Positions 23,987-61,055 are shown, counted from the first letter of the stretch. The stretch is 64,000 nucleotides of DNA from Candidatus Gilichinskyi gelida (GCA_038040385.1 JBBPII010000005.1:288858-352857), one strand, 5' to 3'. Notes: generated from the letters alone by a model not told the origin. Numbers and translations are program-made.

Positions 23987-23990
23987 GACT

Positions 23991-24060
23991 CTGGAGCGCC
24001 GGCGTCCTCGCCTGCGGCGGCGGGACGCCGCCGAGCCAGCCGCCGGGACGGCGGCGTTCC
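23991..24060. repeat. repeat family B, copy B3
   Basis: GGAGCGCCGGCGTCCTCGCCTGCGGCGGCGGGACGCCGCCGAGCCAGCCGCCGGGACGGCGGCGTTCC between two minus-strand genes. Confidence 0.6.
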
Positions 24061-24062
24061 GG

Positions 24063-28095: not shown

Positions 28096-28112
28096 GGTGT
28101 TTCTTTTTTAGT

Positions 28113-28916: not shown

Positions 28917-28920
28917 TCTT

Positions 28921-29010
28921 GAAGTCTATCCTGAGCGAAGCGAAGGATCTTCGGCTCGATCAGCGCCGCCCGAGCCGAAGATCCTTCGCTTCGCTCAGGA
29001 TTGAATCTTC
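28921..29010. repeat. repeat family A, copy A3
   Basis: TATCCTGAGCGAAGCGAAGGATCTTCGGCTCGA...TCGAGCCGAAGATCCTTCGCTTCGCTCAGGATTGA; the right arm contains the tatD stop codon. Confidence 0.7.
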
Positions 29011-33207: not shown

Positions 33208-34325
33208 GCCCTCATCCGCCGCTTCGCGGCACCTTCTCCCGCAAGCGGGAGAAGGACGACTTAGCCCCTCTCCCGCGTGCGGGAGAGGGTGGCGCGAAGC
33301 GCCGGGTGAGGGCCGCCGCCGTCGCGCTGCTCTTCCTGGCGTCCGCGGCGAGCGCCCAAGTCGTGGCATCCACGCCAAAAGGCATCGTCGTCGCCCACCA
33401 CCGCGTCGTCGAACTGTACGACGGCGTCAATCGCATCTGGTCCGCGCCCGGCCTGCAAACGCCGGAGGTGGTCGTGTCGTCAAAGGACCAGATCGCGGTT
33501 CTCGACCCTTTGAACAACGAAGCGCGCATCGTCGAGCTGGCGACCGGTCGCGGCAGAACGGTGCAAACGGGAGAGACGCCAATCGCCGGCGTCTTCATCG
33601 GAAGCGCGCTTTATCTCCTCGAGCGAGACGCTCGAGCTCTCGAACGGATCGGCGCGGACGGCACGAGAGCGTCCATCTCCACCCTCGCCGATCCGGCATT
33701 TCTTCGCGAGCGCAACGGCGTGCTTTACGTCTACTCCCGCGCCGAGGGGATCGTGCAGGAGATCGCGACGTCACCGTTCGCCGCGCGACGGAGCGCGAAG
33801 ACGGCGGCCTTCGGCTCCGACTTCGAAGTCGACGGCCGCAACGCGTACGTCGTGCAGCCGCGCGCGGGGAAGATCGCCGTGGTGTCGCTGGCGACGATGA
33901 AGGCGACGGGAACGATCGACGCCGGCGCGGTGCCGGTCGACCTCGAGCTCACCTCCGGCGGCACGGCACTCACCGCCCGCACGCTGGCCATCGCCGACCC
34001 GTCGGCGAAGAAAGTGTGGCTGCTGGAAGGCGCGCAGTCGACCAGCCAGGCCTTCCTCCGCGGCTTCTTCCGCGGCCTCCTCGGCCTCGGCCTGTTTGGT
34101 GGCCGCGCCTCGCAGTTTCCCACCGGCGTCGACCGCGTCGTGGCGCGCGGCGGGCGGTGGTACGCGTACGACTCGAGCAGCGGCACGCTCTACCGTTTCA
34201 CCAAGCGGGCGAGCGCGACCGTGGCAAAAAATGTTGCTCCCCAACGGTTTGCGATTACGGCAGCCGGCGTTTTCGTCTGGAACGACGCGGTACGCCGGTT
34301 GCAGAAACTGGACAGCAATGGCTAA
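33204..34325 (+). CDS. secreted beta-propeller-like (YVTN-type repeat) protein
   Basis: Signal peptide AAAVALLFLASAASA; repeated ...YVV..RAGKIAVVSLATMKATGTIDAGAVPVDLEL... units. Confidence 0.4.
   Translation: MSPHPPLRGTFSRKREKDDLAPLPRAGEGGAKRRVRAAAVALLFLASAASAQVVASTPKGIVVAHHRVVELYDGVNRIWSAPGLQTPEVVVSSKDQIAVLDPLNNEARIVELATGRGRTVQTGETPIAGVFIGSALYLLERDARALERIGADGTRASISTLADPAFLRERNGVLYVYSRAEGIVQEIATSPFAARRSAKTAAFGSDFEVDGRNAYVVQPRAGKIAVVSLATMKATGTIDAGAVPVDLELTSGGTALTARTLAIADPSAKKVWLLEGAQSTSQAFLRGFFRGLLGLGLFGGRASQFPTGVDRVVARGGRWYAYDSSSGTLYRFTKRASATVAKNVAPQRFAITAAGVFVWNDAVRRLQKLDSNG
33208..33312. repeat. repeat family C, copy C2
   Basis: CCCTCATCCGCCGCTTCGCGGCACCTTCTCCCGCAAGCGGGAGAAGG...CCCTCTCCCGCGTGCGGGAGAGGGTGGCGCGAAGCGCCGGGTGAGGG at the 5' end of the 33204 ORF. 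It is in frame if ATG 33204 is used; alternatively it lies upstream of a GTG start near 33305. Confidence 0.65.
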
Positions 34326-35603: not shown

Positions 35604-35695
35604 GAACGCCGCCGTCTCGGCGGCTGGCGCGGCGGCGTCCCGCCGCCGCAGGCGAGGCGCCTGCGGTCCAGCCGGCGAGACGCCGGCGCTCCGGT
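35604..35695. repeat. repeat family B, copy B4
   Basis: GGAACGCCGCCGTCTCGGCGGCTGGCGCGGCGGCGTCCCGCCGCCGCAGGCGAGGCGCCTGCGGTCCAGCCGGCGAGACGCCGGCGCTCC. Confidence 0.6.
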
Positions 35696-35706
35696 AGACT
35701 CTCCTC

Positions 35707-36294: not shown

Positions 36295-36302
36295 AGGCGT
36301 CG

Positions 36303-36385
36303 TCCCGAGCGTAGCGAGGGACCTGGGGGACGGGTGGCGCGCCGCACACCGCCCAGGTTCCTCGCTACGCTCGGAATGACGGTGG
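36303..36385. terminator. bidirectional terminator-like long inverted repeat between convergent genes
   Basis: GTCCCGAGCGTAGCGAGGGACCTGGG ... CCCAGGTTCCTCGCTACGCTCGGAATGAC, arms of about 25 bp. Confidence 0.45.
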
Positions 36386-37433: not shown

Positions 37434-40400
37434 ATGCTTCGAATCGAAAAGCTGGAAATCAACGGCTTCAAATCGTTCTACGATCCCGCACAACTCACCT
37501 TCCCCGCGGCCCTGACCGCTGTCGTCGGCCCCAACGGCTGCGGGAAGTCGAACATCTGCGACGCGCTGATCTGGGTTCTGGGAGAGAACCGCGCCTCGCA
37601 CATCCGCGGCGAGACGATGGACGACGTCATCTTCCAGGGCTCGGCACGCCGCCGCGCGCTGTCGATGGGCGAAGTCACCCTCACCCTCGCCGCCACGAAC
37701 GGGGACAGCAACAACCCCGCCGCCGACGACGGCCGCATCACCATCAACCGCCGCGTCTTCCGCACCGGCGAGTCGGAGTTCCGCCTCAATGGGAAGCGCG
37801 TCCGCCTCAAGGACATCTCCGACATCCTGATGGACACCGGCCTCGGTATCCGCAACTACTCGGTGATGGAGCAGGGGAAGATCGATCTGATCCTCTCCAA
37901 CAAGCCGCAGGACCGCCGAAAGCTGATCGAGGAAGCGGCCGGCATCACGAAGTACAAGACCAAGCGGCGGGGCGCGGAGCTGAAGCTCGAGGAGACGCAG
38001 CAGAATCTGCTGCGCATCGACGACACCCTCGGCGAAGTGACGCGCAACCTCAACTCGCTGAAGCGGCAGGCCGGCAAGGCGCGCCGCCACAAGGAACTGA
38101 TCGAGGAGCTGTCGACGGCGAAGCGCGCGCTGTACAAAGGGCGCATCGTCGCCGCCGAGGCGGAGCAGAGCGCGGCTGACGAAGGCGTCGCCGCGGCGCA
38201 CGGCGGCGAGAGCGAGCTGGCCGCGCAACTGGCGAACGACGAAGCGGGCCTCGCGGAGAACCGCACCGCGCTGGCCGGCGCTGCGTCGCGCGCATCGCAC
38301 GTGCGAGAGCAGATGGCGTCGCTCACCGGAGAGGTCGAGCGGCTCCGCTCGTTTCTGCAACAGTCGGAGCTCAACCTCGGCGATCTGACGCAGCGCATCG
38401 CCGTCGGCCGGTCGCAGGTCGGGTCGCTGGAAGCGGAAGCGACGGAACAACAGACGCTGCTCGAAGAAAAAACGCGCTCCCTCGACGCCGCGCGCGCCGA
38501 GCGCAATCGCCTCCGCGAGATCGCCGAGCAGCTCGAGCACGACCGGCAGGAGCGATCGGACAAAGTGCGGACGCACGAGAAGTCGCTCGCCGACGCGCGC
38601 GAGTCGCTGATGCGCACCATTGCCAGGATCTCCGAGGCGCGCAATCAGGTGCATCAGATCGAAGTCGCCGTGGAGAAGTGCGAGTTCTACCTCGGCAAGT
38701 TGAGCGAACAGGCGCGCAAGGCCTCGGAGAATCGCGACGACGCGCAGGCCACGGTGGTCGATTGGGACCAGCGCGTGCGCGACGCCGAAGAGTTCCTGGC
38801 CCACGCGCAGCGCACCGCGCGCGAGGCCATCGCGCACCGCGACGACCTCACCGCCCGACGTGACGGTCTGCGCGAGACGCTGGCCGGCGCACGAGACCGG
38901 GTGTCGCAGACGACGTACAAGATCGACTCGCTGCGCACGCTGCTGACGTCGCTCGAGTCGCAGGACGAGGATGTCCGCCGCGCCACGCTGGAGCTGATCC
39001 CCAACGCCACGCCGGCGGCCGAATCGGTGCGCGCCACCGAGGGCTTCGAGGCAGCGCTCGACACGCTGCTGCGCGACGTGTCGAAGGCCATCGTGGTCGA
39101 CGACGCGCAAACCGCGGCGACCGCCATCGCGCGGCTGCGCGAGCGCGGCGCGGGTCGCGGGGCGTTCCTCGCGCTCGACTACGAACCAGCCCCTCACCCC
39201 CAGCCCCTCTCCCCGCGCGGCGGGGAGAGGGTGGCCGAAGGCCGGGTGAGGGGCTCCCGTCGCGGCAACGCCGCGTTTGCCGTCGCCGGCGACGGCGACG
39301 TCGCGGACGCCGTTCGCGCGGCCATGCCCGAGGCCTACATTGTCGGTACCCTCGGCGAGGCGATCGACCGGGCCAAGGAACGCCCGCACGCCACGTTCGT
39401 CACCCTCGACGGCGACATCGTCCGCGGTCCGCTGCTCATCGGCGGCAAGACCGAAGGCGCCACGCCGGGCGTCTTCTCCCTCAAGCGCCAGCTCACCGAT
39501 CTCGAGTCGCTTCACGGATTCGAGGAGACGCGCGCCGGCGGCATCGCGGTCGATTTGAACGCCCTCGAAGAGGAGCTGCGCGTCGCCGACGACGACCGCA
39601 TGCTGGCCGACGAGCGCGCGCGCTCCGCGGAGCAGGAGCTTCGCGAGCGGCGCAGCCAGCGCGAGCGCGCCGCGGTGGAGCTCGACCGCTTCCAGCGCGA
39701 CCTCGCCGTCGCCTCCGAGGAGCAGACGCTGTACGCCGAGGAAAAGGATCAGCTCCTGGCGCGCAAGCACGCGGCGATCGAAGAGTTGCGGCGCCTCGAG
39801 GAATCGGAGCGCAAATGCCAGGAGGAGATCCGCGCGAACGAGGAGCAGCTCGCCGCGCTGCGCGCCACGTTCGAAGAGGTGACGGAGATCGCGTCGAAGT
39901 CGCGCGTCGACGTCGAGACCGCCGCCGGCAACGTCAACGCCATCCAGCGGGAGCAGGAGAACGTCTCGCGCGTGGTCGTCTCGCTCGCGACGCGCGTGAC
40001 GCAACTGCAGCACGAGATCGATTCACTTCTCCACAAACAACACGAGACCGAGAGCGCCGTGGAGAACGCGCGCGGCGGACTCGATCGGTCGCTCCGCAAC
40101 CTGCACGAGCTGAGCGAGGTTCGCATAGCCGCCGAGGCCGAAGCGGCGGATCTCGAGACCCGCGTGCAGGAGATGGAAACCCGCGCGGTAACCTCGCGCG
40201 AGATCTGGAACACCGCGAAGGACGCGTTGTTCGAGGCCGAGCGGCGGCGCGATCGCGCGCGCGCGGCCTTCGAGCTGCTGCGCGAACAGATCTCGATGGA
40301 CTTGCACGCCGGTATCGACGCGCTCGCGGAGATCGAGCCCCCCTCGGACCAGGAAGCGCGCACCTCGCTGGAGGCGGAGGTCGCCCGGCTCACCGACCAC

Positions 40401-41015
40401 ATCGAGAAGATTGGGCCGGTGAACGTGCTGGCCATCGAAGAGCATCAGGAGCTCGAGCAGCGCGAGTCGTTCCTCCGCACGCAGCGCGACGATCTGGTGC
40501 AGGCCATCGAGTCGCTGCGCGGCACGATCCGCAAGATCAACCTCACCTCGCGCGAGCTGTTCCGCGAGGCGTTCAACGCCGTCAACATCTACTTCGGCGA
40601 GATCTTCACCTCGCTGTTCGGCGGCGGCACGGCGAAGATGCAACTGCTCGACGAAGAGGACGTGCTCGAGAGCGGCATCGAGCTGGCGGCGCAGCCGCCG
40701 GGGAAGAGGAATCAGTCCATCGCGCTGCTCTCGGGCGGCGAGCGCGCCCTCACCGCGCTGGCGCTGCTCTTCGCTATTTTCCGCTACAAACCGTCGCCGT
40801 TCTGCATCCTCGACGAGGTCGACGCGCCGCTCGACGAAGTGAACAACGAGCGCTTCGTCCGCCTGGTGCGCGACATGTCGCGCGACACGCAGTTCATCGT
40901 GATCACGCACTCCCGCCGCACCATGGAAGCGGCGGACATTCTCTACGGCGTGACGATGGAAGAGGCGGGATGTTCGCGGTTGGTGTCGGTCAACTTCGCG
41001 GAAGTGGAGGGGTAG
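37434..41015 (+). CDS. smc: chromosome segregation protein SMC
   Basis: 1193 aa; Walker A GPNGCGKSN; long coiled-coils; hinge; signature LSGGERALTALALLFAI; Walker B FCILDEVDAPLD. Confidence 0.92.
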   Translation: MLRIEKLEINGFKSFYDPAQLTFPAALTAVVGPNGCGKSNICDALIWVLGENRASHIRGETMDDVIFQGSARRRALSMGEVTLTLAATNGDSNNPAADDGRITINRRVFRTGESEFRLNGKRVRLKDISDILMDTGLGIRNYSVMEQGKIDLILSNKPQDRRKLIEEAAGITKYKTKRRGAELKLEETQQNLLRIDDTLGEVTRNLNSLKRQAGKARRHKELIEELSTAKRALYKGRIVAAEAEQSAADEGVAAAHGGESELAAQLANDEAGLAENRTALAGAASRASHVREQMASLTGEVERLRSFLQQSELNLGDLTQRIAVGRSQVGSLEAEATEQQTLLEEKTRSLDAARAERNRLREIAEQLEHDRQERSDKVRTHEKSLADARESLMRTIARISEARNQVHQIEVAVEKCEFYLGKLSEQARKASENRDDAQATVVDWDQRVRDAEEFLAHAQRTAREAIAHRDDLTARRDGLRETLAGARDRVSQTTYKIDSLRTLLTSLESQDEDVRRATLELIPNATPAAESVRATEGFEAALDTLLRDVSKAIVVDDAQTAATAIARLRERGAGRGAFLALDYEPAPHPQPLSPRGGERVAEGRVRGSRRGNAAFAVAGDGDVADAVRAAMPEAYIVGTLGEAIDRAKERPHATFVTLDGDIVRGPLLIGGKTEGATPGVFSLKRQLTDLESLHGFEETRAGGIAVDLNALEEELRVADDDRMLADERARSAEQELRERRSQRERAAVELDRFQRDLAVASEEQTLYAEEKDQLLARKHAAIEELRRLEESERKCQEEIRANEEQLAALRATFEEVTEIASKSRVDVETAAGNVNAIQREQENVSRVVVSLATRVTQLQHEIDSLLHKQHETESAVENARGGLDRSLRNLHELSEVRIAAEAEAADLETRVQEMETRAVTSREIWNTAKDALFEAERRRDRARAAFELLREQISMDLHAGIDALAEIEPPSDQEARTSLEAEVARLTDHIEKIGPVNVLAIEEHQELEQRESFLRTQRDDLVQAIESLRGTIRKINLTSRELFREAFNAVNIYFGEIFTSLFGGGTAKMQLLDEEDVLESGIELAAQPPGKRNQSIALLSGGERALTALALLFAIFRYKPSPFCILDEVDAPLDEVNNERFVRLVRDMSRDTQFIVITHSRRTMEAADILYGVTMEEAGCSRLVSVNFAEVEG
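39190..39254. repeat. repeat family C, short copy C3, in frame inside the smc hinge region
   Basis: CCCCTCACCCCCAGCCCCTCTCCCCGCGCGGCGGGGAGAGGGTGGCCGAAGGCCGGGTGAGGGG, encoding ...PAPHPQPLSPRGGERVAEGRVRG... Confidence 0.6.
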
Positions 41016-41110
41016 GGGGCGCGCAGCAGCGCGCCCGGCTTTGCCGGAGTACCGGGCGCACTGCTGTGCGCCCCTACCGAATCACGGGCACCACCAGCAT
41101 CTCCCCGTCC
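40867..41110. repeat. direct repeat copy 1 (smc 3' end plus downstream), about 85% identical to 43387..43620
   Basis: The 141-nt smc 3' end coding [46 protein letters not shown] recurs at 43390..43539 with 8 differences, all synonymous. The downstream CCCCTACCGAATCA... also recurs. Confidence 0.8.
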
Positions 41111-41117
41111 GGCCGCG

Positions 41118-42443
41118 TTACCAGTCGCTCCCCTTCACGGCTCGTGGCGGTGAAATCAATCGGGAGAGCGAGGTGACAACGGGCTGGGTGCCCACTTCGC
41201 CGCTCGCGTTGACACCCGTCGACAGAAAAACGTCATAGATCTTGGCATTGTGATACTTGCCTTTGCGATCGCGCACCATGGCCTTGGCGCGGAACCGGAA
41301 CGTGTTGCCGTTCTCGTCGGTGTAGTTCAAGCGGACGTAGTGGAAATCGATCGACCTGACACCGGCCACCGACAGAGCGATCAACTCGCTCGGCTGTGAA
41401 ATGCCGTCGTGATCCGAGTCGAGCCAAAGAAGCAGCGTTCCCCAAAGCCGGTCGCGATCATCCAACTGCCCGTCGCCATTGCCGCCCAGCGCCGCGGTGT
41501 CGAATTCTCCAAGGGCGACGAAGCCATTCGGAGCCTTGTGCCCATTCGCGAGCGGTGTCGCATTGCCAAACAGCTCGCGGCCGTCGCCGATACGCCCGTC
41601 GCCATTGCGATCGCGGCAGAGGAAGGCATCGCCGCCGGCTGCGCTGGTCCAGCCGATACGCTCCGCCCGACGATCGGCGTTCAGATCGAACGAGACACCA
41701 TTCTCCGCATTCGTCAGAGTGAAGCCATCGTCGTCCAGATCGATGATGATCGGCGATTCACCAGGCGGGCAGTAATAGCTGTTCCCCGTGTACTCGCATT
41801 GCCTGAGGCACGACGAGTTGCACGTCTGGAGGTCGGCCTGCTGCTGATCGACCTGTTCCTCGATAGGCGTATACCACTGCTCGTCTATATGGTTGCAGTC
41901 CTCGATGTCGAGCCCGCTATAGCCTGTGGCATAGGCATGATTCCCCATCACATGGCCAAAACACGCACCGCCGACTTCTCCGTTGGATGGATGGCCGAGG
42001 CCGAGAACGTGACCGAACTCGTGCTCCAGTGAATTCACCCACTCTTGCGAGCATGCACGGCCAAGAATATCGCTCTCGTAAACGGTGATCGTGCCGCCGG
42101 TGGTCTGTCCCGATTGATTATCCTGGTAAGCCGCGCAGCCGCCGGTCAGCGTCTGCGATACACCGCTCACGTAATTGACGGTGACCTGGAGGCATCCAGA
42201 GCCGGAACACGTTCCGGAGCCGATGGAGGGATAGTCATAGCTGCTGCCGCCGCCGCAGCCCGAATTCCAATAGCCGGCGGCGGCGGAGATGGCGGTGTCG
42301 TCAGGAAAGTTGGACGTCGTTACCCTGACTTGCGTGATGTAAAACGTAGTATCGCGGTAGCCGAGCAGCGTCGAGCATGCGGACGCCGGCACCGCCGCGA
42401 GCAGAAGGAGAGAGCCGAGGACGAGAAGATAAGGCGTTCTCAT
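41118..42443 (-). CDS. secreted zinc metalloprotease (metzincin HExxHxxGxxH) with C-terminal Ca-binding EF-hand/dockerin-like repeats
   Basis: Signal peptide; HEFGHVLGLGH; three D-x-[DN]-G-D-G-x-[IL] style loops (DRNGDGRIGDGRE, GGNGDGQLDDRD, DSDHDGISQPSE). Confidence 0.65.
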   Translation of the reverse strand: MRTPYLLVLGSLLLLAAVPASACSTLLGYRDTTFYITQVRVTTSNFPDDTAISAAAGYWNSGCGGGSSYDYPSIGSGTCSGSGCLQVTVNYVSGVSQTLTGGCAAYQDNQSGQTTGGTITVYESDILGRACSQEWVNSLEHEFGHVLGLGHPSNGEVGGACFGHVMGNHAYATGYSGLDIEDCNHIDEQWYTPIEEQVDQQQADLQTCNSSCLRQCEYTGNSYYCPPGESPIIIDLDDDGFTLTNAENGVSFDLNADRRAERIGWTSAAGGDAFLCRDRNGDGRIGDGRELFGNATPLANGHKAPNGFVALGEFDTAALGGNGDGQLDDRDRLWGTLLLWLDSDHDGISQPSELIALSVAGVRSIDFHYVRLNYTDENGNTFRFRAKAMVRDRKGKYHNAKIYDVFLSTGVNASGEVGTQPVVTSLSRLISPPRAVKGSDW

Positions 42444-42456
42444 GGTTGGCCACCCG

Positions 42457-43389
42457 TCACCGTGTCACGCGATCGGGCCGAGCGAGCATCTCGCGTACCT
42501 GTGGCAAGCTGGCGCCCTGCATTCCCCACGCGCGCAGACGAGGAACGACGACGAGGGCACCGCCATGCCAGACGAAGAGGTGCTCGGCAGGAAGGCGGAA
42601 GAGCGTTCCGTCAGGATTCGCAGGCAACCCGGCGACGAAGAGAACCGTATCGCCATTCGCCGGCACCTCGCTGTAACGAGGATCCGAGGTGCAGAGCGCG
42701 ACTCCCTCCACCGTCAGAGTCCCCTTGGGAATGAGGAGATAAGCGGTATCGCCACCGCGTGATTTGCTCGTACGCGTGACGCGTATCTGTACGACCGTGA
42801 ATGGCGTCCCGGCATAAAGTCCGACGTCGGAACCGACCACCGTGCCCTCCACGAGCGGCTGTGTGGACGCGTAGCGGCGCACATCGTCCAGGGTCGCGGC
42901 GGATGGCATCGGCGCGTCGTCCAAAAGCGCGCCAAAGGTGACATCGCATTTGCCGCTCGAGACCGTGGCACCGGCCGCCGAGCTTCGGCGCCCCTCCATT
43001 TGACGGAGATGATTTCGCAGCTGCGCAGCCTCGTGCTCCGCGAGCGCGCCCGAACGAAGAGTCTCGTGGTCGAGCGCCGCGCGTGCCGAAATCCACAATG
43101 GAGCGGTGCGGTAGGGGTTCGTGCTCCAGAACTTGTCGGGAATCTCTGCGCCACCTTGTGCGGCGGTCGTGGTCAACATCAGTGCGAGCGCGGTAAGGAT
43201 TATGTGGGTCACTCGAAACCTCCTGCAGTTTGGGTAGTCATTCCGTTTCTCCGCAATAACACGGAGCGGGGATTCTTGCTTCCGCGCGCGAATGGTGTCA
43301 AACGCGACAGCGCGGAGCGTCTCACCGGCAGGCGAGCATGAGCAGCGATCGGGTTGGGGCCGCGGGTAGTCCCCCCTTGGCACTGGCAA
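42457..43389 (-). CDS. hypothetical secreted protein
   Basis: Probable GTG start at 43212 giving signal peptide [20 protein letters not shown]; no recognisable domain. Confidence 0.35.
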
Positions 43390-43539
43390 CTACCGAACAT
43401 GTCGCGCGACACGCAGTTCATCGTCATCACCCACTCCCGCCGCACGATGGAGGCGGCGGACATCCTCTACGGCGTGACGATGGAAGAGGCGGGGTGTTCG
43501 CGGCTGGTGTCGGTGAACTTCGCGGAAGTGGAGGGGTAG
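43390..43539 (+). pseudogene. displaced duplicate of the smc 3' end (last 46 codons)
   Basis: Has no upstream smc context (preceded by ...GGCAACTACCGAAC); same frame and stop as the smc end; synonymous-only divergence. Confidence 0.7.
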
Positions 43540-43551
43540 GGCGCGCAGCCC

Positions 43552-43794: not shown

Positions 43795-44670
43795 CTAGGC
43801 GGCGGGCGGGGCGTCGCTTGTGAGCTGGCTCACGCCGCGGGTCACGATCCAGGCAACGAGCAGTCCTGCGGCAGCGGACGCCAGGACGTCGGACGGCCAG
43901 TGCCGGAAGGCGAGGATGCGCGAGAGGCCGACGACGGCGGCGAGCAGGAAGGCGATGGCGCGCATCGCGCGCGACGGCGACGCGAACATCAGCACGCCGG
44001 CCAGCGCGAACGCGCCGACGGTGTGCCCGCTGGGGAACGAGCTCGCTGCTGCACGTGCGTGGTGAAACGGCCCGAGCCACAGCTCGGGACGGCTGCGGCC
44101 GACGATCAGCTTCACGAGCTGGCCGAGGAGACCCGCCGCCAGGCCGGCGACGGTCATCGCCACGGCGTACCCGATCCAACGGCGATGGCGGAACGCCACG
44201 CCGGCGAGAACGAAGAAGCCCACCACCATCGCCGGGTTCATCCCGCCGCCGAAGCGGTTGGCGATGCGGATGAAGTCTTCGACGGCGTCGGACTGCACGC
44301 GCTCGGCCCAGGCGATCACCGGCCCATCGGCGAAGAGCCAGACCAGCGCCACGGCGACGGCCGCGGCGCCGAGCGCGATCGCGTCGGCCGCGCGCAGGCG
44401 TATGCGCAGCGCGCGCAGGACGCGCCATGGCTCGCGGTAGTCGGCCGAGAGATCGATCAGCGACAGTGCGAACAAGCCGGCGATGAACCAGAAGGCGACG
44501 TCCCACGCCGCCGCCTCGCGGCCGAGGAACGAGAGCTCGTCGACGCCGATGGCCGCGTTGCAGCAGAGGCGGTTGACGGAGACGAACGGCGACGGCCAGA
44601 ACACCGACAGCGCCAGCAGGGCGATGAATCCCGCGGCGGCCAGCCGGCGCTTAGCGTCGATAGACATCAA
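43795..44670 (-). CDS. PAP2 family phosphatase
   Basis: KLIVGRSRPE, PSGHT, SRILAFRHWPSDV (PAP2 motifs 1-3); 6 TM. Confidence 0.8.
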   Translation of the reverse strand: MMSIDAKRRLAAAGFIALLALSVFWPSPFVSVNRLCCNAAIGVDELSFLGREAAAWDVAFWFIAGLFALSLIDLSADYREPWRVLRALRIRLRAADAIALGAAAVAVALVWLFADGPVIAWAERVQSDAVEDFIRIANRFGGGMNPAMVVGFFVLAGVAFRHRRWIGYAVAMTVAGLAAGLLGQLVKLIVGRSRPELWLGPFHHARAAASSFPSGHTVGAFALAGVLMFASPSRAMRAIAFLLAAVVGLSRILAFRHWPSDVLASAAAGLLVAWIVTRGVSQLTSDAPPAA

Positions 44671-46216
44671 ACCATTTTCCGATCATCCGCACCTCGTCGA
44701 CCTTGCGGTAGCCGGTCAGCGCCGGCGCGATCTCCTTCGCGTGGCGGCGACTGGTCACGATCAGGTTGGGCTTCCTCCGCAGCAGCGTCTCGGGATCGGC
44801 GTAGACCACGCGCTCCAGCGAGCGCGGGAGATCGCGCGTCCAGAGGTACGGCGTGGAGTAAAGCGCGATCTCCTCCGGCGGAACGCGCTGCCGCTCGAGG
44901 ACCGTGACCAGCGCCTGCGTGGAGCCGAACCCGTTCACGAACGGCAGCAGATACGCCGCCACGAATACCAGGACCGCGACCGTCACCGCGCCGGCGGCGA
45001 TGGTCGACGTCTCCAGCGACGCGCGCGCGGCGATGACGAAGGCGACGACCGACACCACTAGCGTGAAGGCGATCAGTCCGTTCACGCCCGCCACCGAATC
45101 GAATTCGCGCGGCATCTTGACGCCGCCCACGATCGCGCCGATGAAGACGATGGCGATGGCGATCAGGTTCGCCGCCCTCGCCCACCGCACGCCCGCCCGC
45201 ACCCCCTCGGCGACCAGCAGCGCCACCGCGGGGATCATGGCCATCATGTAGACGTCGAGTTTGCTGCTCATGAGCGAGTACGGCAGCAGAACGGCGATGA
45301 TCCAGTTGATGAGAAAGCGGTGCGTGCGCCACAGCGCGATGGCCGAGGCGAGCGCGAGGAAGAACCAGGGAAAGAGCGACAGCGGCAGGCGCTCGAGGTA
45401 ATACCACGGCGGCGCCTTGTGCACCCACGAGGCAATCGCCCGGCCAACCGTCTGCTTGACCATCACGTCACGCGCGTAGTCGCCGCCGCCCACCAGCACG
45501 GCGGGCACGAACCAGAGCAGCGGGATGACGATCATGACCAGAAGAGCGAGCCCCTCATCCGCCCTTCGGGCACCTTCTCCCCGCACGCGGGGAGAAGGAG
45601 GCTGTGGGCCCTCTCCCGCCCGCGGGAGAGGGTGGCGCGAAGCGCCGGGTGAGGGTCGGCGGCGCAGCGACTCCAGAAGGAAGAGGACGAGACCGATCAC
45701 GATGGCCATCGGCCCTTTGACCAGCGTGGCCACGCCGAGCGCGACGCCGCACCACAGCAGCGCGCGGCGGTCGTCGCGCTCGAAGAACGTCTCCATCTGG
45801 AGCAGGCCGAGGGCGATGAGCGCGGTGAAGGCGACGTCCATCCGCGCCGTCTGCGCCGAGCCCCAGATCAAGAGCGAGGTCCCGCAGACATACGCCGCCA
45901 GCGGCCCGCCGCGCCGCCACATCAGCCACAGCAGAAAAGCGAACGCGGCGATGGATGGCAGCACGAACGCCCAGGTCGAGTAGATGCCGAGGGGAAACGT
46001 CAGCAGATCGATGGCCCAGAAGTGCAGCGGCGGCTTGTGCGTGAACGGCGCGCCGTTGAGCGTGGGGAGAAAAAATGCGCCGGTGGTGCGCATCTCGCGG
46101 ACCACCTGCCCGTACTTCGTCTCGTCGCCGACGAAGAGGTCGCGGTTCGCGGGCGAGATCAGGACGGAAAAAAACAGGAGGAAGACGGCGACGGGCAGAA
46201 GGCGCTGGCGAGGCAT
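44651..46216 (-). CDS. GT39/GT83-type (ArnT/PMT-like) membrane glycosyltransferase
   Basis: N-terminal FVGDETKYGQVVREM (the DE motif of the ArnT/PMT family); more than 10 TM helices; has an in-frame family C repeat in a loop. Confidence 0.65.
   Translation of the reverse strand: MPRQRLLPVAVFLLFFSVLISPANRDLFVGDETKYGQVVREMRTTGAFFLPTLNGAPFTHKPPLHFWAIDLLTFPLGIYSTWAFVLPSIAAFAFLLWLMWRRGGPLAAYVCGTSLLIWGSAQTARMDVAFTALIALGLLQMETFFERDDRRALLWCGVALGVATLVKGPMAIVIGLVLFLLESLRRRPSPGASRHPLPRAGEGPQPPSPRVRGEGARRADEGLALLVMIVIPLLWFVPAVLVGGGDYARDVMVKQTVGRAIASWVHKAPPWYYLERLPLSLFPWFFLALASAIALWRTHRFLINWIIAVLLPYSLMSSKLDVYMMAMIPAVALLVAEGVRAGVRWARAANLIAIAIVFIGAIVGGVKMPREFDSVAGVNGLIAFTLVVSVVAFVIAARASLETSTIAAGAVTVAVLVFVAAYLLPFVNGFGSTQALVTVLERQRVPPEEIALYSTPYLWTRDLPRSLERVVYADPETLLRRKPNLIVTSRRHAKEIAPALTGYRKVDEVRMIGKWFDVYRR
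45551..45655. repeat. repeat family C, copy C4 (inside a CDS)
   Basis: CCCTCATCCGCCCTTCGGGCACCTTCTCCCCGCACGCGGGGAGAAGG...CCCTCTCCCGCCCGCGGGAGAGGGTGGCGCGAAGCGCCGGGTGAGGG; encodes ...RRPSPGASRHPLPRAGEGPQPPSPRVRGEG... Confidence 0.65.
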
Positions 46217-48186: not shown

Positions 48187-49211
48187 AACACGCGAACGGC
48201 CATTGGCTGGGCATCGTCAATCCGCTGACGCTGGTCGGCAATGAGGTCAAGAGCATCCTGCGCGAGCGCTCCTTTCCCGCCGAGCGCGTGGTGCTGCTCG
48301 ACTCCACCGGCGCCGCCGCCGGCGCGCTGACGGAGATCGGCGACGAGCCGGCCGTGGTCACCGCCGTCTCCGACGATGAGCTGGAGGATCTCGACCTCGT
48401 CTTCTTCTGCGGTCCGGCGGAGAAGAATCGCGAGTGGCTGAATCGCGCGGACGACGACGCGTTCTACGCCGTCGATCTGTCGCAGCCGTCGACGGTGGAG
48501 GAGGGGAAGCTCGCCGTAGCCGGGGTGAACCTCGACGAGATGAGCGAAAACGATCGCGTGCTGATCTCGCCGCATCCGGTGGCCATCCCCCTCGCGCTGG
48601 TGCTGCATCAGATCGAGCAAGCCGGCTGGGTGGAGATCTGCACCGCCACCGTGGTGCAGCCGGCGTCGGAGTTCGAGCAGGCCGGCATCGAGGAGCTGGC
48701 GCAGCAGACCCTCGGCGTGCTGAATATCCAGGGCGTGCCGAAGGACGTCTTCCACCGCCAGCTCGCGTTCAACCTCTACCCCGCGGCCGAGCACAATGAG
48801 GACTACATCGTAGGGCAGGTCCGCGCGCTGACCGACCCGCGGACGCAGATCGCGCTGCTGGTCACGCAGGGGACGATCTTCCACAGCCACACCTTCTCGC
48901 TGTTCCTGAAGAGCGAGGGCGAGGTGGACGTGGAGGCCATCAAGAGCGCGTTGCGCGCGAACGCCGCCATCGCCGTCGCCGAGCCGGACGAGCAGCTCGG
49001 CACCATCGACGCGGCCGGCCGCGATCAGGTCCTGATCGCCGAAAGTGCGGCCCGATCCATCGATCCGCGGCGGATTCTGGGTCTGGGCGGTCTGCGACAA
49101 TCTGCGCCGCAGCTCCGCGCTCAATGCGGTGCTGGTGGCGGAGAAGGTTCTGGTTGGGATGGCGGTCAATTAATCCTGAGCGAAGCGAAGGATCTTCGGC
49201 TCGATCGGTAG
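48183..49211 (+). CDS. aspartate-semialdehyde dehydrogenase-like protein (atypical)
   Basis: Asd/ArgC-like layout with Cys in ...VEICTATVVQPASEF...; N-terminal GIVNPLTLVGNEV replaces GxxGxxG; probable TTG start overlapping the pssA stop; the C-terminus runs into repeat A4. Confidence 0.5.
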   Translation: MKHANGHWLGIVNPLTLVGNEVKSILRERSFPAERVVLLDSTGAAAGALTEIGDEPAVVTAVSDDELEDLDLVFFCGPAEKNREWLNRADDDAFYAVDLSQPSTVEEGKLAVAGVNLDEMSENDRVLISPHPVAIPLALVLHQIEQAGWVEICTATVVQPASEFEQAGIEELAQQTLGVLNIQGVPKDVFHRQLAFNLYPAAEHNEDYIVGQVRALTDPRTQIALLVTQGTIFHSHTFSLFLKSEGEVDVEAIKSALRANAAIAVAEPDEQLGTIDAAGRDQVLIAESAARSIDPRRILGLGGLRQSAPQLRAQCGAGGGEGSGWDGGQLILSEAKDLRLDR

Positions 49212-49270
49212 CGCCTGTGGTCTTGTGCGCTGCTGGTCGAGCCGAAGATCCTTCGCTTCGCTCAGGATAG
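49168..49270. repeat. repeat family A, copy A4
   Basis: TAATCCTGAGCGAAGCGAAGGATCTTCGGCTCGATCGG...CGAGCCGAAGATCCTTCGCTTCGCTCAGGATAGAC. Confidence 0.7.
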
Positions 49271-49280
49271 ACTTCAGCCC

Positions 49281-49758: not shown

Positions 49759-49860
49759 GGAGCGCCGGCGTCCTCGCCGGCTGGCTCGCAGGCGTCCCGC
49801 CTGCGCCCCGTACGGCGGCGGGACGCCGCCGGGCCAGCCGCCGGGACGGCGGCGTTCCGT
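49759..49860. repeat. repeat family B, copy B5
   Basis: GGAGCGCCGGCGTCCTCGCCGGCTGGCTCGCAGGCGTCCCGCCTGCG...GCGGGACGCCGCCGGGCCAGCCGCCGGGACGGCGGCGTTCC between convergent genes. Confidence 0.65.
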
Positions 49861-49911
49861 CAGAAGCCGATCAGATCGAGAGCGGATAGAGGGCGATCGC
49901 GGCGCGCCGCA

Positions 49912-51128: not shown

Positions 51129-54038
51129 ATGCCCTCCCGCACCTCGATTGCTATTTTCATCGCGCTCGCCTTAGGCGCGCTCCCCGCCTTCGCGCAGACG
51201 TTCGTCTTCCACCTGCGCGGCGACCAGGAAGTCCCCCCGGTGCCGAGCGTCGCCACCGGCGGCTGCATGATGGAGCTCAATCAGCCGATGGCGCAGACGA
51301 CCATCACCTGCGTTCACAACGTGGTCGGCGCGACGGTCATGCACATCCACCGCGGCGCGCCCGGCGTCAACGGCCCCATCGTCTTCGACCTCGGCGATCC
51401 CGCCAGCCCGGTCACCGCGACCTGGATCGGGATGACGCCTGCCGACATCGCCGACATGCTGGCCGGCAACTTCTACATCAACATCCACACGGCCGGCCGG
51501 CCGGCCGGCGAGATCCGCGGTCAAATTCTGACGCGCACCGTCGACCTGGTGGCCTTCACCGCGAACGGCGCGCAGGTGGTGCCGCCGAACGCGTCGGCGG
51601 CCACGGCGAACTGCACCGCGGACCTCGACAACCCCGCCACCTCGCTCGCGGTGAACTGCACGCACAATTTCGCCTCGCCGCAGAGCGCGCACATTCACGA
51701 GGCGCCCGCCGGCCAGAACGGGCCGATCGTTTTCACCTTCGCCAGCCCGAATTCGCCGCTGTCGGCGAACGTGCCGACGACGCCGCAGCTCGTCGCCGAC
51801 TTCGCCGCCACCTTCCTCTATCTCGACATCCACGGCGCCGGCGGCACCGAGGCGATACCGGCGGATGAGATCCGCGGCCAGATCGGAACGCCGCCCGCAC
51901 CGCCGAGCACCGGAACGATCGAGATCGTCAAGACGACGCAGCCGGCCGGCGGCACCGGTTTCACCTTTACGGACAATGTTCCCGGCTCGCCGGGAACCTT
52001 CGCGCTCAACGACGGCCAGACGCGCACGTTTTCCGCGGTTCCCGCCGGCACGTACACCGTCAGCGAGAACGACCCGACCGTGACGCCCGGCGGCTACACG
52101 CTCGGCGACCTCTCGTGCACCGACGCCGACAGCACCGGCGACACGGCCGCCCGCACGGCGACGGTCCGCCTCGCCGCGGGCGAGACGGTGCGCTGCACGT
52201 TCCGAAACCTGCGCACCGCGGCCACCGACACGCTGTTCGTCTTTCATCTGTCCGGCGACCAGGAGGCGCCGCCGGTCTCCACCACGGAGCGCGGCGGCTG
52301 CATGGGCCGCTTCAACAGCGGCGCCAGCGAGCTCACGCTCATCTGTACTCATGATGTTGCGTCGCCGACGGTCATGCACATCCATCGCGGCGCTCCCGGA
52401 GTCAACGGCCCGATCGTCTTCGACCTCGGCAGTCCCGTCAGCCCGGTGACCGCCACCTGGAGCGGGATGACGCCGGCGGACGTGGCCGATCTCCTCGCCG
52501 GCAACCTGTACATCAACATCCACACCGCGGGCCGGCCGGCGGGAGCGATTCGCGGCCAGATCCTGCCGCGGACCGTCGACGTCGTAAACTTCACGCTCGA
52601 CAGCAGCCAGGTGGTGCCGCCGGGAACCAGCACCGCAACCGGAAACTGCACCGCCGACCTCGACAACCCCGCGACGGCGCTCGCCGTCCAGTGCACGCAC
52701 AACCTGCCGTCGCCCAACCAGGCGCACGTCCACCAGGCGCCCTTCGGCGCGAATGGGCCGATCGTCTTCACCTTCCCCACGCCCGCCAGCCCGTTCTCGG
52801 CGAACGTGCCGATGACGCCGCGGCTGGTCGCCGATTTCGCCGCGTACTTCCTCTACGTCGACGTCCACGGCGTCGCCGGCTCGGAGAGCACGCCCGCTGA
52901 CGAGATCCGCGGCCAGATCGGCGCGCAGGCAGCCCCACCGGCCACCGGCACGATCCGCATCGTCAAATCGACGGCGCCCGCGGGCGGCAGCGGCTTCGGC
53001 TTCACCGACAACGTTCCCGGCTCGAGCGGCAGCTTCACTCTCAGCGACGGCGGCGTGCGGACCTTCACCAGCGTCGCCGCCGGCACGTACACGATTACGG
53101 AGAACAATCCGGCCGCAAGCGGCTACTCGCCGACGGACGTCAACTGCGACGACGCGGACAGCGCCGGCGACCCGTTCGCGCGTACGGCGTCCGTTCATCT
53201 GCAGGCCGGCGAAACGGTCACCTGCACGTTCCACAATCTGCAGTCGCAGGCCGCATCGTCGCTGTTCGTCTTCCACCTCTCCGGCGACCAGGAAGTGCCG
53301 CCGGTGGCCACGGCGGCGACCGGCGGTTGCTTCATGCAATTCACCGCCACGTTGAGCCAGCTCTCCATGGTGTGCACGCACAACGTCGGCAGCCCGGTGC
53401 AGATGCACATCCACCGCGGCGCCCCCGGCGTCAACGGCCCGATCCTCTTCGACCTCGGCAACCCGAGCAGCCCCGTGGAGGCCGTTTGGACCGGCATGAC
53501 GCCCTCCGACGTCGCCGATCTCATGGCGGGAAACCTGTACATAAACATCCACGCCAGCGGCCGGCCGGCGGGGGAAATCCGAGGACAGATCCTTCCGCGG
53601 ACCATCGACCACTTCAGCTTCGTCCTGACCGGCAGCCAGATGGTGCCGCCGACCGATTCGACGGCCACCGGCAATTGCGCGGCGGACCTGTCGGACGATG
53701 CCGGGTCGCTGTCCATCCAGTGCCGCCTCAGCATCGCGAACCCGACCGCGATCCATCTGCACGACGGACCTCCAGGGGTGAACGGGCCGGTGGTCTTCGA
53801 CTTCCCCCCCAGCAGTTCGTTCGCGGGCGCCGCGCCGCTGACGCCGCGGCTGGTGGCGGATTTCGCCGCCGGCTTCCTCTACCTGGACATTCATTCGGCG
53901 AACGATCCCGACGGCGAGATCCGCGGACAGCTCACCGCTTCGTCGGCGTCCGCGGCGGCCATCCCGATGTTCGACGGATGGATGATGATGCTGCTCGCCG
54001 CGGCGCTGGTAAGTCTCGCGGTGTGGCGGATGCGTTAG
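51129..54038 (+). CDS. secreted 6x CHRD-domain repeat protein with C-terminal TM anchor
   Basis: Signal peptide. Six CHRD-like units (e.g. TFVFHLRGDQEVPPV...MHIHRGAPGVNGPIVFDLG; ...AHIHEAPAGQNGPIVFTF) interleaved with Ig-like GTIEIVKTTQPAGGTGFTFTDN... modules. C-terminal ...IPMFDGWMMMLLAAALVSLAVWRMR. Confidence 0.7.
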   Translation: MPSRTSIAIFIALALGALPAFAQTFVFHLRGDQEVPPVPSVATGGCMMELNQPMAQTTITCVHNVVGATVMHIHRGAPGVNGPIVFDLGDPASPVTATWIGMTPADIADMLAGNFYINIHTAGRPAGEIRGQILTRTVDLVAFTANGAQVVPPNASAATANCTADLDNPATSLAVNCTHNFASPQSAHIHEAPAGQNGPIVFTFASPNSPLSANVPTTPQLVADFAATFLYLDIHGAGGTEAIPADEIRGQIGTPPAPPSTGTIEIVKTTQPAGGTGFTFTDNVPGSPGTFALNDGQTRTFSAVPAGTYTVSENDPTVTPGGYTLGDLSCTDADSTGDTAARTATVRLAAGETVRCTFRNLRTAATDTLFVFHLSGDQEAPPVSTTERGGCMGRFNSGASELTLICTHDVASPTVMHIHRGAPGVNGPIVFDLGSPVSPVTATWSGMTPADVADLLAGNLYINIHTAGRPAGAIRGQILPRTVDVVNFTLDSSQVVPPGTSTATGNCTADLDNPATALAVQCTHNLPSPNQAHVHQAPFGANGPIVFTFPTPASPFSANVPMTPRLVADFAAYFLYVDVHGVAGSESTPADEIRGQIGAQAAPPATGTIRIVKSTAPAGGSGFGFTDNVPGSSGSFTLSDGGVRTFTSVAAGTYTITENNPAASGYSPTDVNCDDADSAGDPFARTASVHLQAGETVTCTFHNLQSQAASSLFVFHLSGDQEVPPVATAATGGCFMQFTATLSQLSMVCTHNVGSPVQMHIHRGAPGVNGPILFDLGNPSSPVEAVWTGMTPSDVADLMAGNLYINIHASGRPAGEIRGQILPRTIDHFSFVLTGSQMVPPTDSTATGNCAADLSDDAGSLSIQCRLSIANPTAIHLHDGPPGVNGPVVFDFPPSSSFAGAAPLTPRLVADFAAGFLYLDIHSANDPDGEIRGQLTASSASAAAIPMFDGWMMMLLAAALVSLAVWRMR
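51195..53990 (+). repeat. three tandem ~1.03-kb coding repeats (units start near 51195, 52230, 53260; the third lacks the Ig-like module)
   Basis: Protein-level super-repeats (2 CHRD + 1 Ig-like) with recognisable DNA-level similarity. Confidence 0.65.
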
Positions 54039-54844: not shown

Positions 54845-54895
54845 GCGCCGGCGATCGTAGCAGCCGGCGCATGAACAGCTCGGGCGTCAGCGGGG

Positions 54896-55996
54896 TTATT
54901 TCGCTCCCTCGTTGCCGCTCTTTTCCTTTGGTTTGACCGTGGAGCGGACGACGATGATCTTGTTGAGAATGTCGAACCAGAACGGCGCTCCGAGCGTCAC
55001 GGCCGCGGCGGTGATGAGGATGCCGAGAATCTTGGAGAGCCAGTCCAAGCCGGTTGCGGGTCGGCTATGGTTCTTCCACCCGATCGGGAGGCCGAAAGAC
55101 TCCATCTTGTCCAAGCTCCCGGTCAATCGTTTGAGGGTCGCATCGATCGCCTCGTGATCCGCCTTTGTCTTCGCTTCCCCCTTCGCCTCCACCTGCCCCT
55201 TCGCCTCCACCTGCCCCTTCGCCTCCACCTGCCCCTTCGCCTCCGCCGCCTTCGCCTCTGCTGCCGCCTTCGCCTTCGCCTCCGCCGCCGCCTCCTCACG
55301 CAGCTTCTGGGTCACCTCGGTCGTCGCCGCGTTTACGACCGCCGCGCGCAGCGCCTTGTCGGTCGCCAGTTTCTTGGCCACCGCGATACTGTCGACGTTC
55401 AGCGCGCCTGCGGCCGCTAGTCCAACCAAGGCGAGAATCCAGTGCGTCCGCCGCTTGTACCAACCGGAGACGCGGTCCATGCTGGAGTTGAACCACTCCT
55501 CAACGTTCTCCCGCGCCTTCGCGGCATTGTTCGCGGCGGCGGTGATCAGCCGCCCAACCGCCTGATCCACGCCGCCGATGGCGCCCGCGAGCGGGTTAGC
55601 GATCGGCGCGACGGCCGCGGGCGCCGGATCAACCGTGCCCGCAGCCGGTGGCGCGGCCGCGGTGGCACCGGCGAGCGGCACGTTCAGTACGTCCATGAGG
55701 GCCAATGCAAAGTTGCGGGCGGGGATGTAGGACGGCAGCTTGCGCTTGGCCCACATGCCCGCTGTGGTGACGTTCGGAAAGTTGCCGCGGTAAAGGCTGG
55801 CGATGAGTGGGTGGTCATAGACCTGCGCGACGATCGCCGGGTTGTTTATCAGCTCGCCGATTCCCTCCAGCAGATCGCGCCCGCGGTATTGCAACAGCGT
55901 CTCGATGATCTCGATCACCGCCGAGGCGATGAGACTCATCATCAGGTACAAGAAAACCACGCCGATGGCCACGTCGAGCATTTCGAGACCGAACAT
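54896..55996 (-). CDS. uncharacterised membrane protein, paralog A (family with 59525..60535)
   Basis: N-terminal TM MFGLEMLDVAIGVVFLYLMMSLIASAVIE; conserved ...PSYIPARNFALALMD..., ...AKARENVEEWFNSSMDRVSGWYKRR... and C-terminal TM ...LGAPFWFDILNKIIVVRSTVKPKEKSG; contains a GQVEAK tandem repeat. Confidence 0.5.
   Translation of the reverse strand: MFGLEMLDVAIGVVFLYLMMSLIASAVIEIIETLLQYRGRDLLEGIGELINNPAIVAQVYDHPLIASLYRGNFPNVTTAGMWAKRKLPSYIPARNFALALMDVLNVPLAGATAAAPPAAGTVDPAPAAVAPIANPLAGAIGGVDQAVGRLITAAANNAAKARENVEEWFNSSMDRVSGWYKRRTHWILALVGLAAAGALNVDSIAVAKKLATDKALRAAVVNAATTEVTQKLREEAAAEAKAKAAAEAKAAEAKGQVEAKGQVEAKGQVEAKGEAKTKADHEAIDATLKRLTGSLDKMESFGLPIGWKNHSRPATGLDWLSKILGILITAAAVTLGAPFWFDILNKIIVVRSTVKPKEKSGNEGAK
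55175..55290. repeat. 18-bp tandem coding repeat (GQVEAK)x3 within an Ala/Lys-rich low-complexity tract
   Basis: CCCCTTCGCCTCCACCTG repeated on the plus strand (coding on minus). Confidence 0.6.
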
Positions 55997-60950: not shown

Positions 60951-61052
60951 CGGAGCGCCGGCGTCCCGCCGGCTGGACGGGCGCCGTCCCGGCGCCCCGA
61001 TGCACGCGGCGGCGAGACGCCGCCGGGCCAGCCGCCGAGGACGGCGGCGCTC
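60951..61052. repeat. repeat family B, copy B6
   Basis: GGAGCGCCGGCGTCCCGCCGGCTGGACGGGCGCCGTCCCGGCGCC...GGCGAGACGCCGCCGGGCCAGCCGCCGAGGACGGCGGCGCTCC, 3' of dnaJ. Confidence 0.65.
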
Positions 61053-61055
61053 CGG

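Follow-up and report, generated by a model that had tools for sequence, protein, structure and literature searches.

Among the closest described systems are REPINs, paired repetitive extragenic palindromic (REP) sequences reportedly mobilised by REP-associated tyrosine transposases (RAYTs); in the account attributed to Bertels and Rainey in 2011, two inverted REP units and a short spacer are said to make up a hairpin of ~100 nt. REPIN-RAYT systems are portrayed in bioRxiv abstracts as vertically inherited and lineage-specific. Rickettsia palindromic elements (RPEs) are, as later papers summarise them, palindromic sequences of ~100-150 nt found in-frame in unrelated functional genes (Ogata et al. 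2000, 2002, via PMC10969869 and PMC3733652). REPs lying wholly within open reading frames (ORFs) were surveyed by Di Nocera et al. (2013; PMC3733652), who found them to be most numerous in Opitutus terrae and R. conorii; these intragenic REPs encode 20-30 aa, many lie in replication and repair genes, and N-terminal cases are probably extragenic. The same study describes TIRYTs, tyrosine transposases flanked by long terminal inverted repeats, of which one group is Acidobacteria-specific and some repeats share the motif GGGGWSAS. For MITEs (miniature transposable elements with inverted repeats), a 2024 review calls in-frame fusions 'not unusual'. Here we analyze family C, a palindromic repeat in a 64,000-nt stretch of DNA from Candidatus Gilichinskyi gelida (GCA_038040385.1 JBBPII010000005.1:288858-352857), hereafter the window, which has a G+C content of ~67%. 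The source names of the closest protein matches suggest that the host belongs to the class Thermoanaerobaculia, phylum Acidobacteriota.

The window contains three double-hairpin copies of family C of ~104 nt and one 62-nt single unit, all located where an earlier note on this DNA had placed them. The copies can be aligned with one another, and both this alignment and an nhmmer profile make it clear that they are homologous. Their refined cores, running from CCCTCA to TGAGGG, and the genes that host them are as follows.

19091-19194 (104 nt), family C doublet in the YfhO-like gene, residues ~231-266
17280-19886, minus strand, host gene for an 868-aa membrane protein (YfhO-like)
39191-39252 (62 nt), family C single unit, read on the plus strand as SMC residues ~586-607, inside the hinge domain
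37434-41015, plus strand, host gene smc, 1193 aa
45552-45655 (104 nt), family C doublet, covering residues ~188-222 of the GT39/ArnT-like protein when read on the minus strand
44651-46216, minus strand, host gene for a GT39 (PMT_2) ArnT-like glycosyltransferase, 521 aa
33209-33312 (104 nt), family C doublet between the stop of a TPR gene and the probable start of the next gene

Both hairpin motifs have 5-10 matches in the window versus none in 100 dinucleotide-preserving shuffles, and a one-arm pattern, GGGAGARGGTGSC(N)CGAAG(N)GSCGGRTGAGGG, recovers seven arms (three doublets and one singlet) where zero are expected. A profile search with nhmmer, built from 320 units, added no copy to these four within the window. 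All four fold into strong single-stranded DNA hairpins (-30 to -53 kcal/mol, z-scores of -5.1 to -11). As copies 19091 and 33208 are 91% identical with the spacer included, the doublet appears to have been copied as a whole. The joint best explanation, which we consider probable, is that family C belongs to the REP/REPIN type, as a hairpin-forming repeat that is non-autonomous and whose in-frame copies are tolerated in permissive loops and are spread by recombination.

That three of the copies lie inside long ORFs, as the earlier note had stated, is borne out by conserved sequence on both of their flanks. Close orthologues of the smc, ArnT-like, and YfhO-like genes are insert-free or carry a shorter form, so the segments are not universal, and in DNA alignments to sister contigs the inserts appear as discrete blocks. 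In the ArnT-like protein, KGPM and KQTV enclose a segment of 64 aa in ~100 orthologues, and one 27 aa longer in the window; a protein 96% identical to it (P0001) is insert-free and has the ancestral RRRRRPRGRDALP, and at the DNA level the family C element takes the place of 24 nt of sister contig L001, for a net gain of 81 nt. SMC relatives are mostly 1175 aa long with a segment of 56 aa at the insertion point, to which the window adds 18 aa (PHPQPLSPRGGERVAEGRVR), a net gain of 54 nt versus the 91%-identical contig L123. This insert falls inside the Pfam SMC_hinge match (527-644), in a region that aligns to the solved hinge structures 5H69 and 1GXL and that varies in length among SMCs. The YfhO-like window protein has no Pfam match itself, and its homologues carry YfhO PF09586, PF24677, or DUF6541. 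Its loop is most commonly 45 aa long (39 of 80 sequences), while the closest relatives (P0121, P0122, and P0124) have one unit and a loop of 51 aa, versus a doublet and 71 aa in the window. Comparison to the 96%-identical contig L122 revealed the clean gain of a 60-nt block, one inverted unit plus spacer, between identical flanks: the half of the doublet next to 19091 is the older single unit, and the half next to 19194, together with the spacer, is the block absent from L122. The proposal of the earlier note, that translatable palindromic elements are tolerated in coding loops in an RPE-like manner, is thus supported by insert-free orthologues, discrete DNA blocks, and homologous copies. The reverse idea, that the segments are ancestral low-complexity linkers rather than insertions, would suit their Pro/Arg/Gly-rich peptides and their place in loops, as native linkers often are, but most orthologues lack the segments, including alleles that are 93-96% identical, and the same nucleotide palindrome occurs at unrelated, mostly extragenic sites in many phyla. 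Orthologue alignments of all three genes refute this idea, to which we assign a negligible probability.

The distribution of the inserts among relatives bears on how they reached these loops. In a tree built without the loop, the ArnT-like proteins of the window, P0006, and P0019 are each paired with an insert-free sister, and the insert has identical junctions in these three non-sister lineages. The DNA of the window and L001 is 97-100% identical beside the loop, but strong divergence affects ~35 nt left of the insert and 22 nt right of it. Because the junctions are identical in non-sister lineages and a divergent patch surrounds the insert, we read the insert-bearing patch as having been imported through homologous recombination. 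As the origin of the three identical junctions, we rank independent site-specific insertion below recombination, since the 24-nt replacement and the flanking EGLAL residues recur and the window allele has the divergent patch. In the YfhO-like family, a tree without the loop shows that the single unit is ancestral in the clade of the window, that the doublet is derived, and that family C entered the loop at least three times. A distant homologue, P0351, likewise has family C in its SMC loop.

These results raise the question of whether the loop copies arose not by transposition but purely by homologous recombination, gene conversion, or template switching, with other alleles or other genomic copies as the source and the hairpin sequence already present acting as an anchor. 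The ArnT-like junctions and their divergent patch are in keeping with such an origin, as are the conversion of the YfhO-like single unit to a doublet by exactly one unit plus a spacer resembling that of 33208, the target GAGGG or TGAGGG that, at the smc and 33208 sites, overlaps the end of the element, and the failure to find target-site duplications described below. It cannot, however, explain how the family came to occupy, in many phyla, hundreds of intergenic sites that are unrelated; the four window copies have flanks without homology to each other, and no donor sequence was recovered. We regard it as a serious possibility, albeit a doubtful one, and favour a REP/REPIN-type repeat whose alleles are secondarily spread by recombination.

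A consistent reading frame had been claimed for the in-frame copies; this holds in part, in that two of the three phases are used, and a uniform frame is not borne out. The phase C-CCT-CAY (PHP...) is found in the YfhO-like gene, ORF 33204, and smc, and CCC-TCA (PSP...) in the ArnT-like gene. In the 104-nt copies, the phase CC-CTC-A.. always meets the TGA of GGRTGAGGG (GGGTGAGGG), and the remaining two are open on either strand, such that four of six reading frames of the element are open. Peptides from the open frames are rich in R (17%), P (16%), G (14%), A (10%), and S (8%), and the peptides quoted in the earlier note are correct. Net length changes are all multiples of three (+81 nt in the ArnT-like gene, +54 nt in smc, and +60 nt in the YfhO-like gene), with 18-27 extra residues in the host protein loops; the predicted peptides that span the insert junctions are ...ESLRRRPSPGASR..., ...DYEPAPHPQPLSPR..., and ...FRVVPHPALR.... 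Judging from these intact frames, the inserts would most simply be read through and translated as disordered loop extensions.

The ArnT-like insert lies in a loop between predicted helices 170-186 and 213-265. In an AlphaFold2 model of moderate quality (mean predicted local distance difference test score, pLDDT, of 70.6), residues 187-212 form a coil flanked by these two confident helices, with a mean pLDDT of 55-60 at residues 191-220 and values below 50 at 192-195 and 209-212. The ancestral loops of the ArnT-like and YfhO-like membrane proteins are short, arginine-rich, and situated between hydrophobic helices; as they are arginine-rich, both are probably cytoplasmic by the positive-inside rule. 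Other palindromic families occupy the same three loops in relatives. The ArnT-like loop contains GTAG-type REP peptides (GRASxRPDxLKPVLH) and others, the SMC hinge loop contains at least ten different inserts plus a further perfect palindrome in contig L002, and the YfhO-like loop, in which about half of 80 orthologues carry some insert, contains the VIPSxARDL...PRYARDD and GSRVSGVGSRR...PTPDSRLP families. As other palindromic families occupy the same loops, these are permissive hot spots.

The inserted peptides could instead be selected modules, for example flexible basic linkers that alter the function of the SMC hinge or of the membrane loops. This would account for the persistence of inserts in several lineages, for the repeated colonisation of the same loops, and for the near-identity of the ArnT-like insert's arms in the window and L002 despite flanks that differ by 20-30%. 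Conservation nevertheless tracks the nucleotide palindrome and not the peptide, the use of two frames yields different peptides, and unrelated families place unrelated peptides in the same loops, while close relatives manage without an insert and the AlphaFold2 model renders it as low-confidence coil. Selection on the peptides is accordingly improbable, and tolerance in permissive loops remains our preferred explanation.

Several other repeats were observed in the window and in a relative. A second palindromic family (GGCGGGACGCC...GCCAGCCGCCGGGACGGCGGCG) is present at 17600-17674, 8333-8407, 23990-24064, 35622-35696, 49788-49862, and 61011-61053; its copy at 17600-17674 is in-frame in the YfhO-like gene and adds 21 aa (GGWPAGVSPAGGGTPPGQPAGTPALH), which are found in full only in the closest homologue, P0121, and partly in P0123. 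Near-perfect palindromes of a third family (ATCCTGAGCGAAGCGAAGGATC...) lie at 12036-12067, 13033-13064, 28920-29004, and 49172-49276, and a peptide matching this family (DPELSARGPSPSSRLRMT) is found in the ArnT-like loop of homologue P0012. Two further long palindromes, perfect or near-perfect and with zero spacer, lie at 28110-28197 and 36298-36381, the latter type resembling the VIPSxARDL...PRYARDD peptides in the YfhO-like loop of P0127 and P0128. In the smc gene of L002, the contig of P0006, a different near-perfect palindrome of ~85 nt (GTGGGACGGGTTCTCAACCCGTCC..., 8245-8337) occupies the place of family C, and the protein has the same length as in the window, 1193 aa. In the window, a 150-nt direct repeat (40873-41022 and 43397-43546, 94% identical) duplicates the 3' end of smc. 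As the smc tail directly adjoins a PAP2/ArnT block in relatives L001, L002, and L003, the segment at 41027-43397, with ORFs 41118-42443 and 42457-43389 on the minus strand, has the appearance of a 2.4-kb insertion bordered by a duplicated gene end.

Three parts make up the basic unit of family C, which is ~45-60 nt long: CCCTCAYCC / GGRTGAGGG form its outer stem, CCYTCTCCC-loop-GGGAGARGG its large hairpin, and GSC(N)-CGAAG-(N)GSC its small hairpin. The copy in smc (39191-39252) comprises a single complete unit, with an outer stem, one large hairpin, and the small GAA hairpin. In the 104-nt form, two units, inverted relative to each other, flank a spacer of 10-13 nt. Each 104-nt copy comprises one A-type unit (GGGAGAAGG...GGATGAGGG) and one G-type unit (GGGAGAGGG...GGGTGAGGG). 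The parts of the copy in the ArnT-like gene are listed in order.

45552-45560, terminal repeat CCCTCATCC
45561-45571, small hairpin GCCCTTCGGGC
45573-45598, hairpin 1
45599-45608, spacer
45609-45632, hairpin 2
45634-45646, small hairpin GGCGCGAAGCGCC
45647-45655, terminal GGGTGAGGG

Analysis of 335 arms revealed strong covariation of the stems: the small hairpin is complementary at 334/335 S positions and 200/200 N positions, as are 297/301 Y-R pairs of the large hairpin. In 332 of the 335 arms there is linkage (A,A or G,G) between the two R positions, although they lie in different stems. All doublets inspected by eye, the three in the window and several from metagenomes, paired an A-type with a G-type unit. 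The termini read (R)C-CCCTCAYCC ... GGRTGAGGG-G(Y), and thus include terminal inverted repeats of the kind that characterise MITEs, while a GTAG or CGTC tag is absent from them.

Such structure could point to a role at the level of mRNA or DNA, with the intragenic hairpins kept as pause sites between transmembrane helices, for mRNA stability, or for protein binding. The great stability of the folds as DNA and the covariation of the stems would be expected of such elements, and elsewhere REPs are believed to function as RNA or DNA elements (PMC3733652). However, no Rfam family matched family C, whether the window was searched at the gathering threshold or six unit-carrying loci at E<=1, the presence of the insert is patchy among near-identical genes, and no functional link unites the three host genes. 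We therefore give this role a low probability and retain tolerated insertion as the explanation of the in-frame copies. A ribozyme or known RNA motif was considered separately and rejected, as no Rfam family was found in the window or in the six unit-carrying loci; a hammerhead-like reading of the GAUGAG beside the GAA hairpin was likewise rejected, the order of the elements being wrong and an Rfam match lacking.

The remaining doublet lies between two genes.

31714-33207, plus strand, upstream TPR-repeat gene, whose stop TGA (33205-33207) abuts the 33209 copy
33204-34325, plus strand, ORF for a secreted-looking protein, with the signal-peptide-like MRAAAVALLFLASAASA from GTG 33306

The copy at 33209-33312 begins one base past the TGA of the TPR gene and sits at the extreme 5' end of ORF 33204. 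Homologues of the protein from this ORF are 320-350 aa long and align from query residue ~33-43, and for this reason the probable start of the gene is GTG 33306, inside the terminal GGGTGAGGG, giving MRAAAVALLFLASAASA. We regard this fourth copy as an insert that most likely lies in a 5' leader or between genes. Its sequence is, in addition, in frame with ATG 33204, which overlaps the TPR stop; the pre-insertion sequence was probably ...CCATGAG^GGCCGCC... (ATG AGG GCC = MRA), with ATGA as a stop/start overlap, and a 34-residue leader from the old ATG, kept in frame by the insert, is possible on the basis of the reading frame.

To place these copies in context, family C was counted in genomes and metagenomes; the figures hold among the matches listed, which are not taxon-matched to the lineage of the window. 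The arm pattern was found in at least 118 stretches in contigs representing one genome per species. These stretches come from Bradyrhizobium, Rhizobium, Mesorhizobium, Devosia, Xanthomonas, Lysobacter, Pseudoxanthomonas, Pseudomonas, Geobacter/Geomonas, Planctomycetota, Verrucomicrobiota (including Akkermansia), Binatia, Thermodesulfobacteriota, one Moraniibacteriota metagenome-assembled genome, and Acidobacteriota. Many phyla share exact arms of 30-32 nt, among them at least Pseudomonadota, Acidobacteriota, Planctomycetota, and Verrucomicrobiota, and these arms are identical from Bradyrhizobium and Xanthomonas to the last three of these phyla. The unit is also present on large plasmids of Azospirillum, Xanthomonas sacchari, and rhizobia, where it almost never lies under an annotated coding sequence. 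A collection of phages gave a single partial match, and hence no sign of a phage vehicle.

A scan for doublets identified at least 120 metagenome loci. When intragenic position was called from a spanning ORF and a criterion based on G+C at third codon positions (GC3), 4 of the 91 testable metagenome doublets were intragenic, one of them in an ORF of nearly 3,000 aa with a flank resembling a non-ribosomal peptide synthetase adenylation motif and the remaining three at L153, L167, and L215. Three of 115 genome units were intragenic, and overall ~95-97% of the sampled copies are extragenic. The colonisation of coding loops described in the earlier note therefore stands for the three window copies and fails for the family as a whole: family C is a typical extragenic palindrome and not a coding-loop specialist, and a genome segment in which three of four copies are intragenic is unusual. 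The identical 30-32-nt arms, the three covarying stems, and the strictly linked A-type and G-type variants lead us to propose, tentatively and as a rather unlikely reading, that the unit is a structure-constrained element common to many phyla, going beyond a lineage-specific selfish repeat, with recurrent colonisation of loops and recombinational exchange of alleles.

How such copies arise may be envisaged as follows. Family C is almost exclusively intergenic across bacteria, and here three copies landed inside genes and persisted. Their survival would have been decided by a length that is a multiple of three, by open frames, and by permissive sites, namely two loops between hydrophobic helices of membrane proteins and one variable loop of the SMC hinge. 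New copies would arise without target-site duplication, either through a HUH tyrosine transposase of the RAYT or TIRYT type that acts in trans on single-stranded hairpin DNA, or by hairpin-promoted template switching or gene conversion from another copy. Insert-bearing loop alleles may then pass between related lineages through short homologous-recombination patches.

Target-site duplication was sought at 106 doublets, and direct repeats of 3-5 nt in the flanks were not above the best of 500 shuffles. Repeats of 2 nt were marginally above it (26 observed versus a shuffle maximum of 25), likely from palindromic GC. The flanks instead extend the palindrome outward by 1-2 nt (R C before the element and G Y after it). 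Given the negative outcome of this test, a classical MITE mobilised by a DDE transposase is unlikely. All-against-all clustering of 4601 ORFs within 2.5 kb of family C copies yielded only common housekeeping families, and no recurrent transposase-like ORF was found within this distance of ~240 loci, a sampling that a usually single-copy RAYT could easily escape. A tblastn search with an E. coli RAYT sequence gave no match, which is a weak negative, and the sampled loci, to which the search was confined, revealed no parent insertion sequence with matching ends. The sequence GGGGAGAG in the hairpin of the smc copy (39190) is reminiscent of the TIRYT motif GGGGWSAS, a likeness that we treat as a lead only.

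Several of these observations weigh against a REP/REPIN-type origin. Neither a RAYT or TIRYT nor any other transposase was found beside any of the ~240 sampled loci, and the GTAG head that typifies REPs mobilised by RAYTs is missing from family C. Simple insertion does not describe any of the three events, the ArnT-like insert replacing 24 nt and the smc insert ~6-10 nt, and replacement of target nucleotides could mean recombination or template switching and not transposition. Ordinary REPIN-RAYT systems, being vertically inherited, do not account for arms that are near-identical across phyla, the inserts are deduced to be translated from intact frames only, and the two censuses cover the matches listed, unmatched to this lineage. 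On balance, the features suggest REP/REPIN-like elements mobilised in trans, or hairpin-driven template switching or gene conversion, and fit DDE-type MITEs less well.

Comparison to the systems introduced above places family C among them without identity to any. Like RPEs, it adds peptides to loops, has insert-free orthologues, and occurs in coding and non-coding copies; unlike RPEs, to which it has no sequence relationship by description, it is without the CGTC tag reported for them (PMC3733652), and whereas RPEs are restricted to Rickettsia with nearly half of copies intragenic, family C is found in many phyla with ~3-5% of sampled copies intragenic. The statement in the earlier note that such elements are rare outside Rickettsia was overstated, given that intragenic in-frame REPs have been catalogued in several species (Di Nocera et al. 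2013, PMC3733652). As in the REP-decorated proteins of that study, family C consists of short palindromes, often inverted dimers, that are mostly extragenic with a minority within ORFs, that hit a DNA-metabolism gene (here smc), and that include an N-terminal case that is probably extragenic (here copy 33209). The REP families of that survey are defined by terminal GTAG or CGTC, neither of which family C has, and as far as its text shows Thermoanaerobaculia and the family C unit fall outside it. Family C is, as REPs are, a repeated, short, imperfect, mainly extragenic palindrome that pairs in inverted orientation into a long hairpin. It resembles REPINs in its inverted units and spacer, the coexistence of singles and doublets, a doublet that seems to be copied whole, and the absence of target-site duplication; it departs from them in the YfhO-like gene, where the single unit is ancestral and the doublet derived, and from REPIN-RAYT systems in a unit that is near-identical across phyla; no RAYT was found at the ~240 sampled loci. 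As with MITEs, the element is small, non-coding, and repeated, with terminal inverted repeats and occasional in-frame fusions, but no target-site duplication was detected and the whole element, not its ends alone, is palindromic. In open full text, figures excluded, we found no published description of the unit, and matches to its sequence strings were chance primers. Family C is thus a fresh example of a known phenomenon, in-frame intragenic repeats as represented by RPEs and by the cases of Di Nocera et al. (2013); what goes beyond the earlier note are the recurrent hot-spot loops with recombinational spread and the covarying unit shared across phyla.

Elsewhere in the window, a 969-aa ORF at 51129-54038 is composed of three tandem units of ~1035 nt that are 74-77% identical and contain internal sub-repeats (GNFYINIHT...GEIRGQ-like). 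An 18-nt periodic repeat (TCGCCTCCACCTGCCCCT-like) at 55147-55298 lies inside ORF 54896-55996 on the minus strand. Segments 54894-55026, 55443-55550, and 55895-55996 are 72-75% identical to 59550-59682, 59997-60104, and 60434-60535, respectively, suggesting from sequence likeness that ORF 54896-55996 and the 59550-60535 region are a paralogous gene pair. Rfam matched the window just once at the gathering threshold, with a tRNA gene at 24877-24949 on the minus strand.

Taken together, our analysis extends the phenomenon of selfish DNA residing within protein-coding genes, for which Rickettsia is best known, to a class of free-living soil acidobacteria and to the hinge of SMC, an essential protein of chromosome maintenance. 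The loops concerned are recurrent landing pads for unrelated palindromic families and would be experimentally useful as permissive sites, and annotators and builders of alignments should be cautious, as Pro/Arg/Gly-rich segments of this kind are repeat-derived. The near-identity of the unit across phyla and the covariation of its stems are at odds with the picture of lineage-specific, vertically inherited REPIN-RAYT systems and might reward more work. If the unit is indeed a cross-phylum element, this would imply a conserved trans-acting partner or the horizontal spread of one mobilisation system, and would point to a natural, ongoing evolution of loop length in core proteins of the Thermoanaerobaculia, including the SMC hinge.

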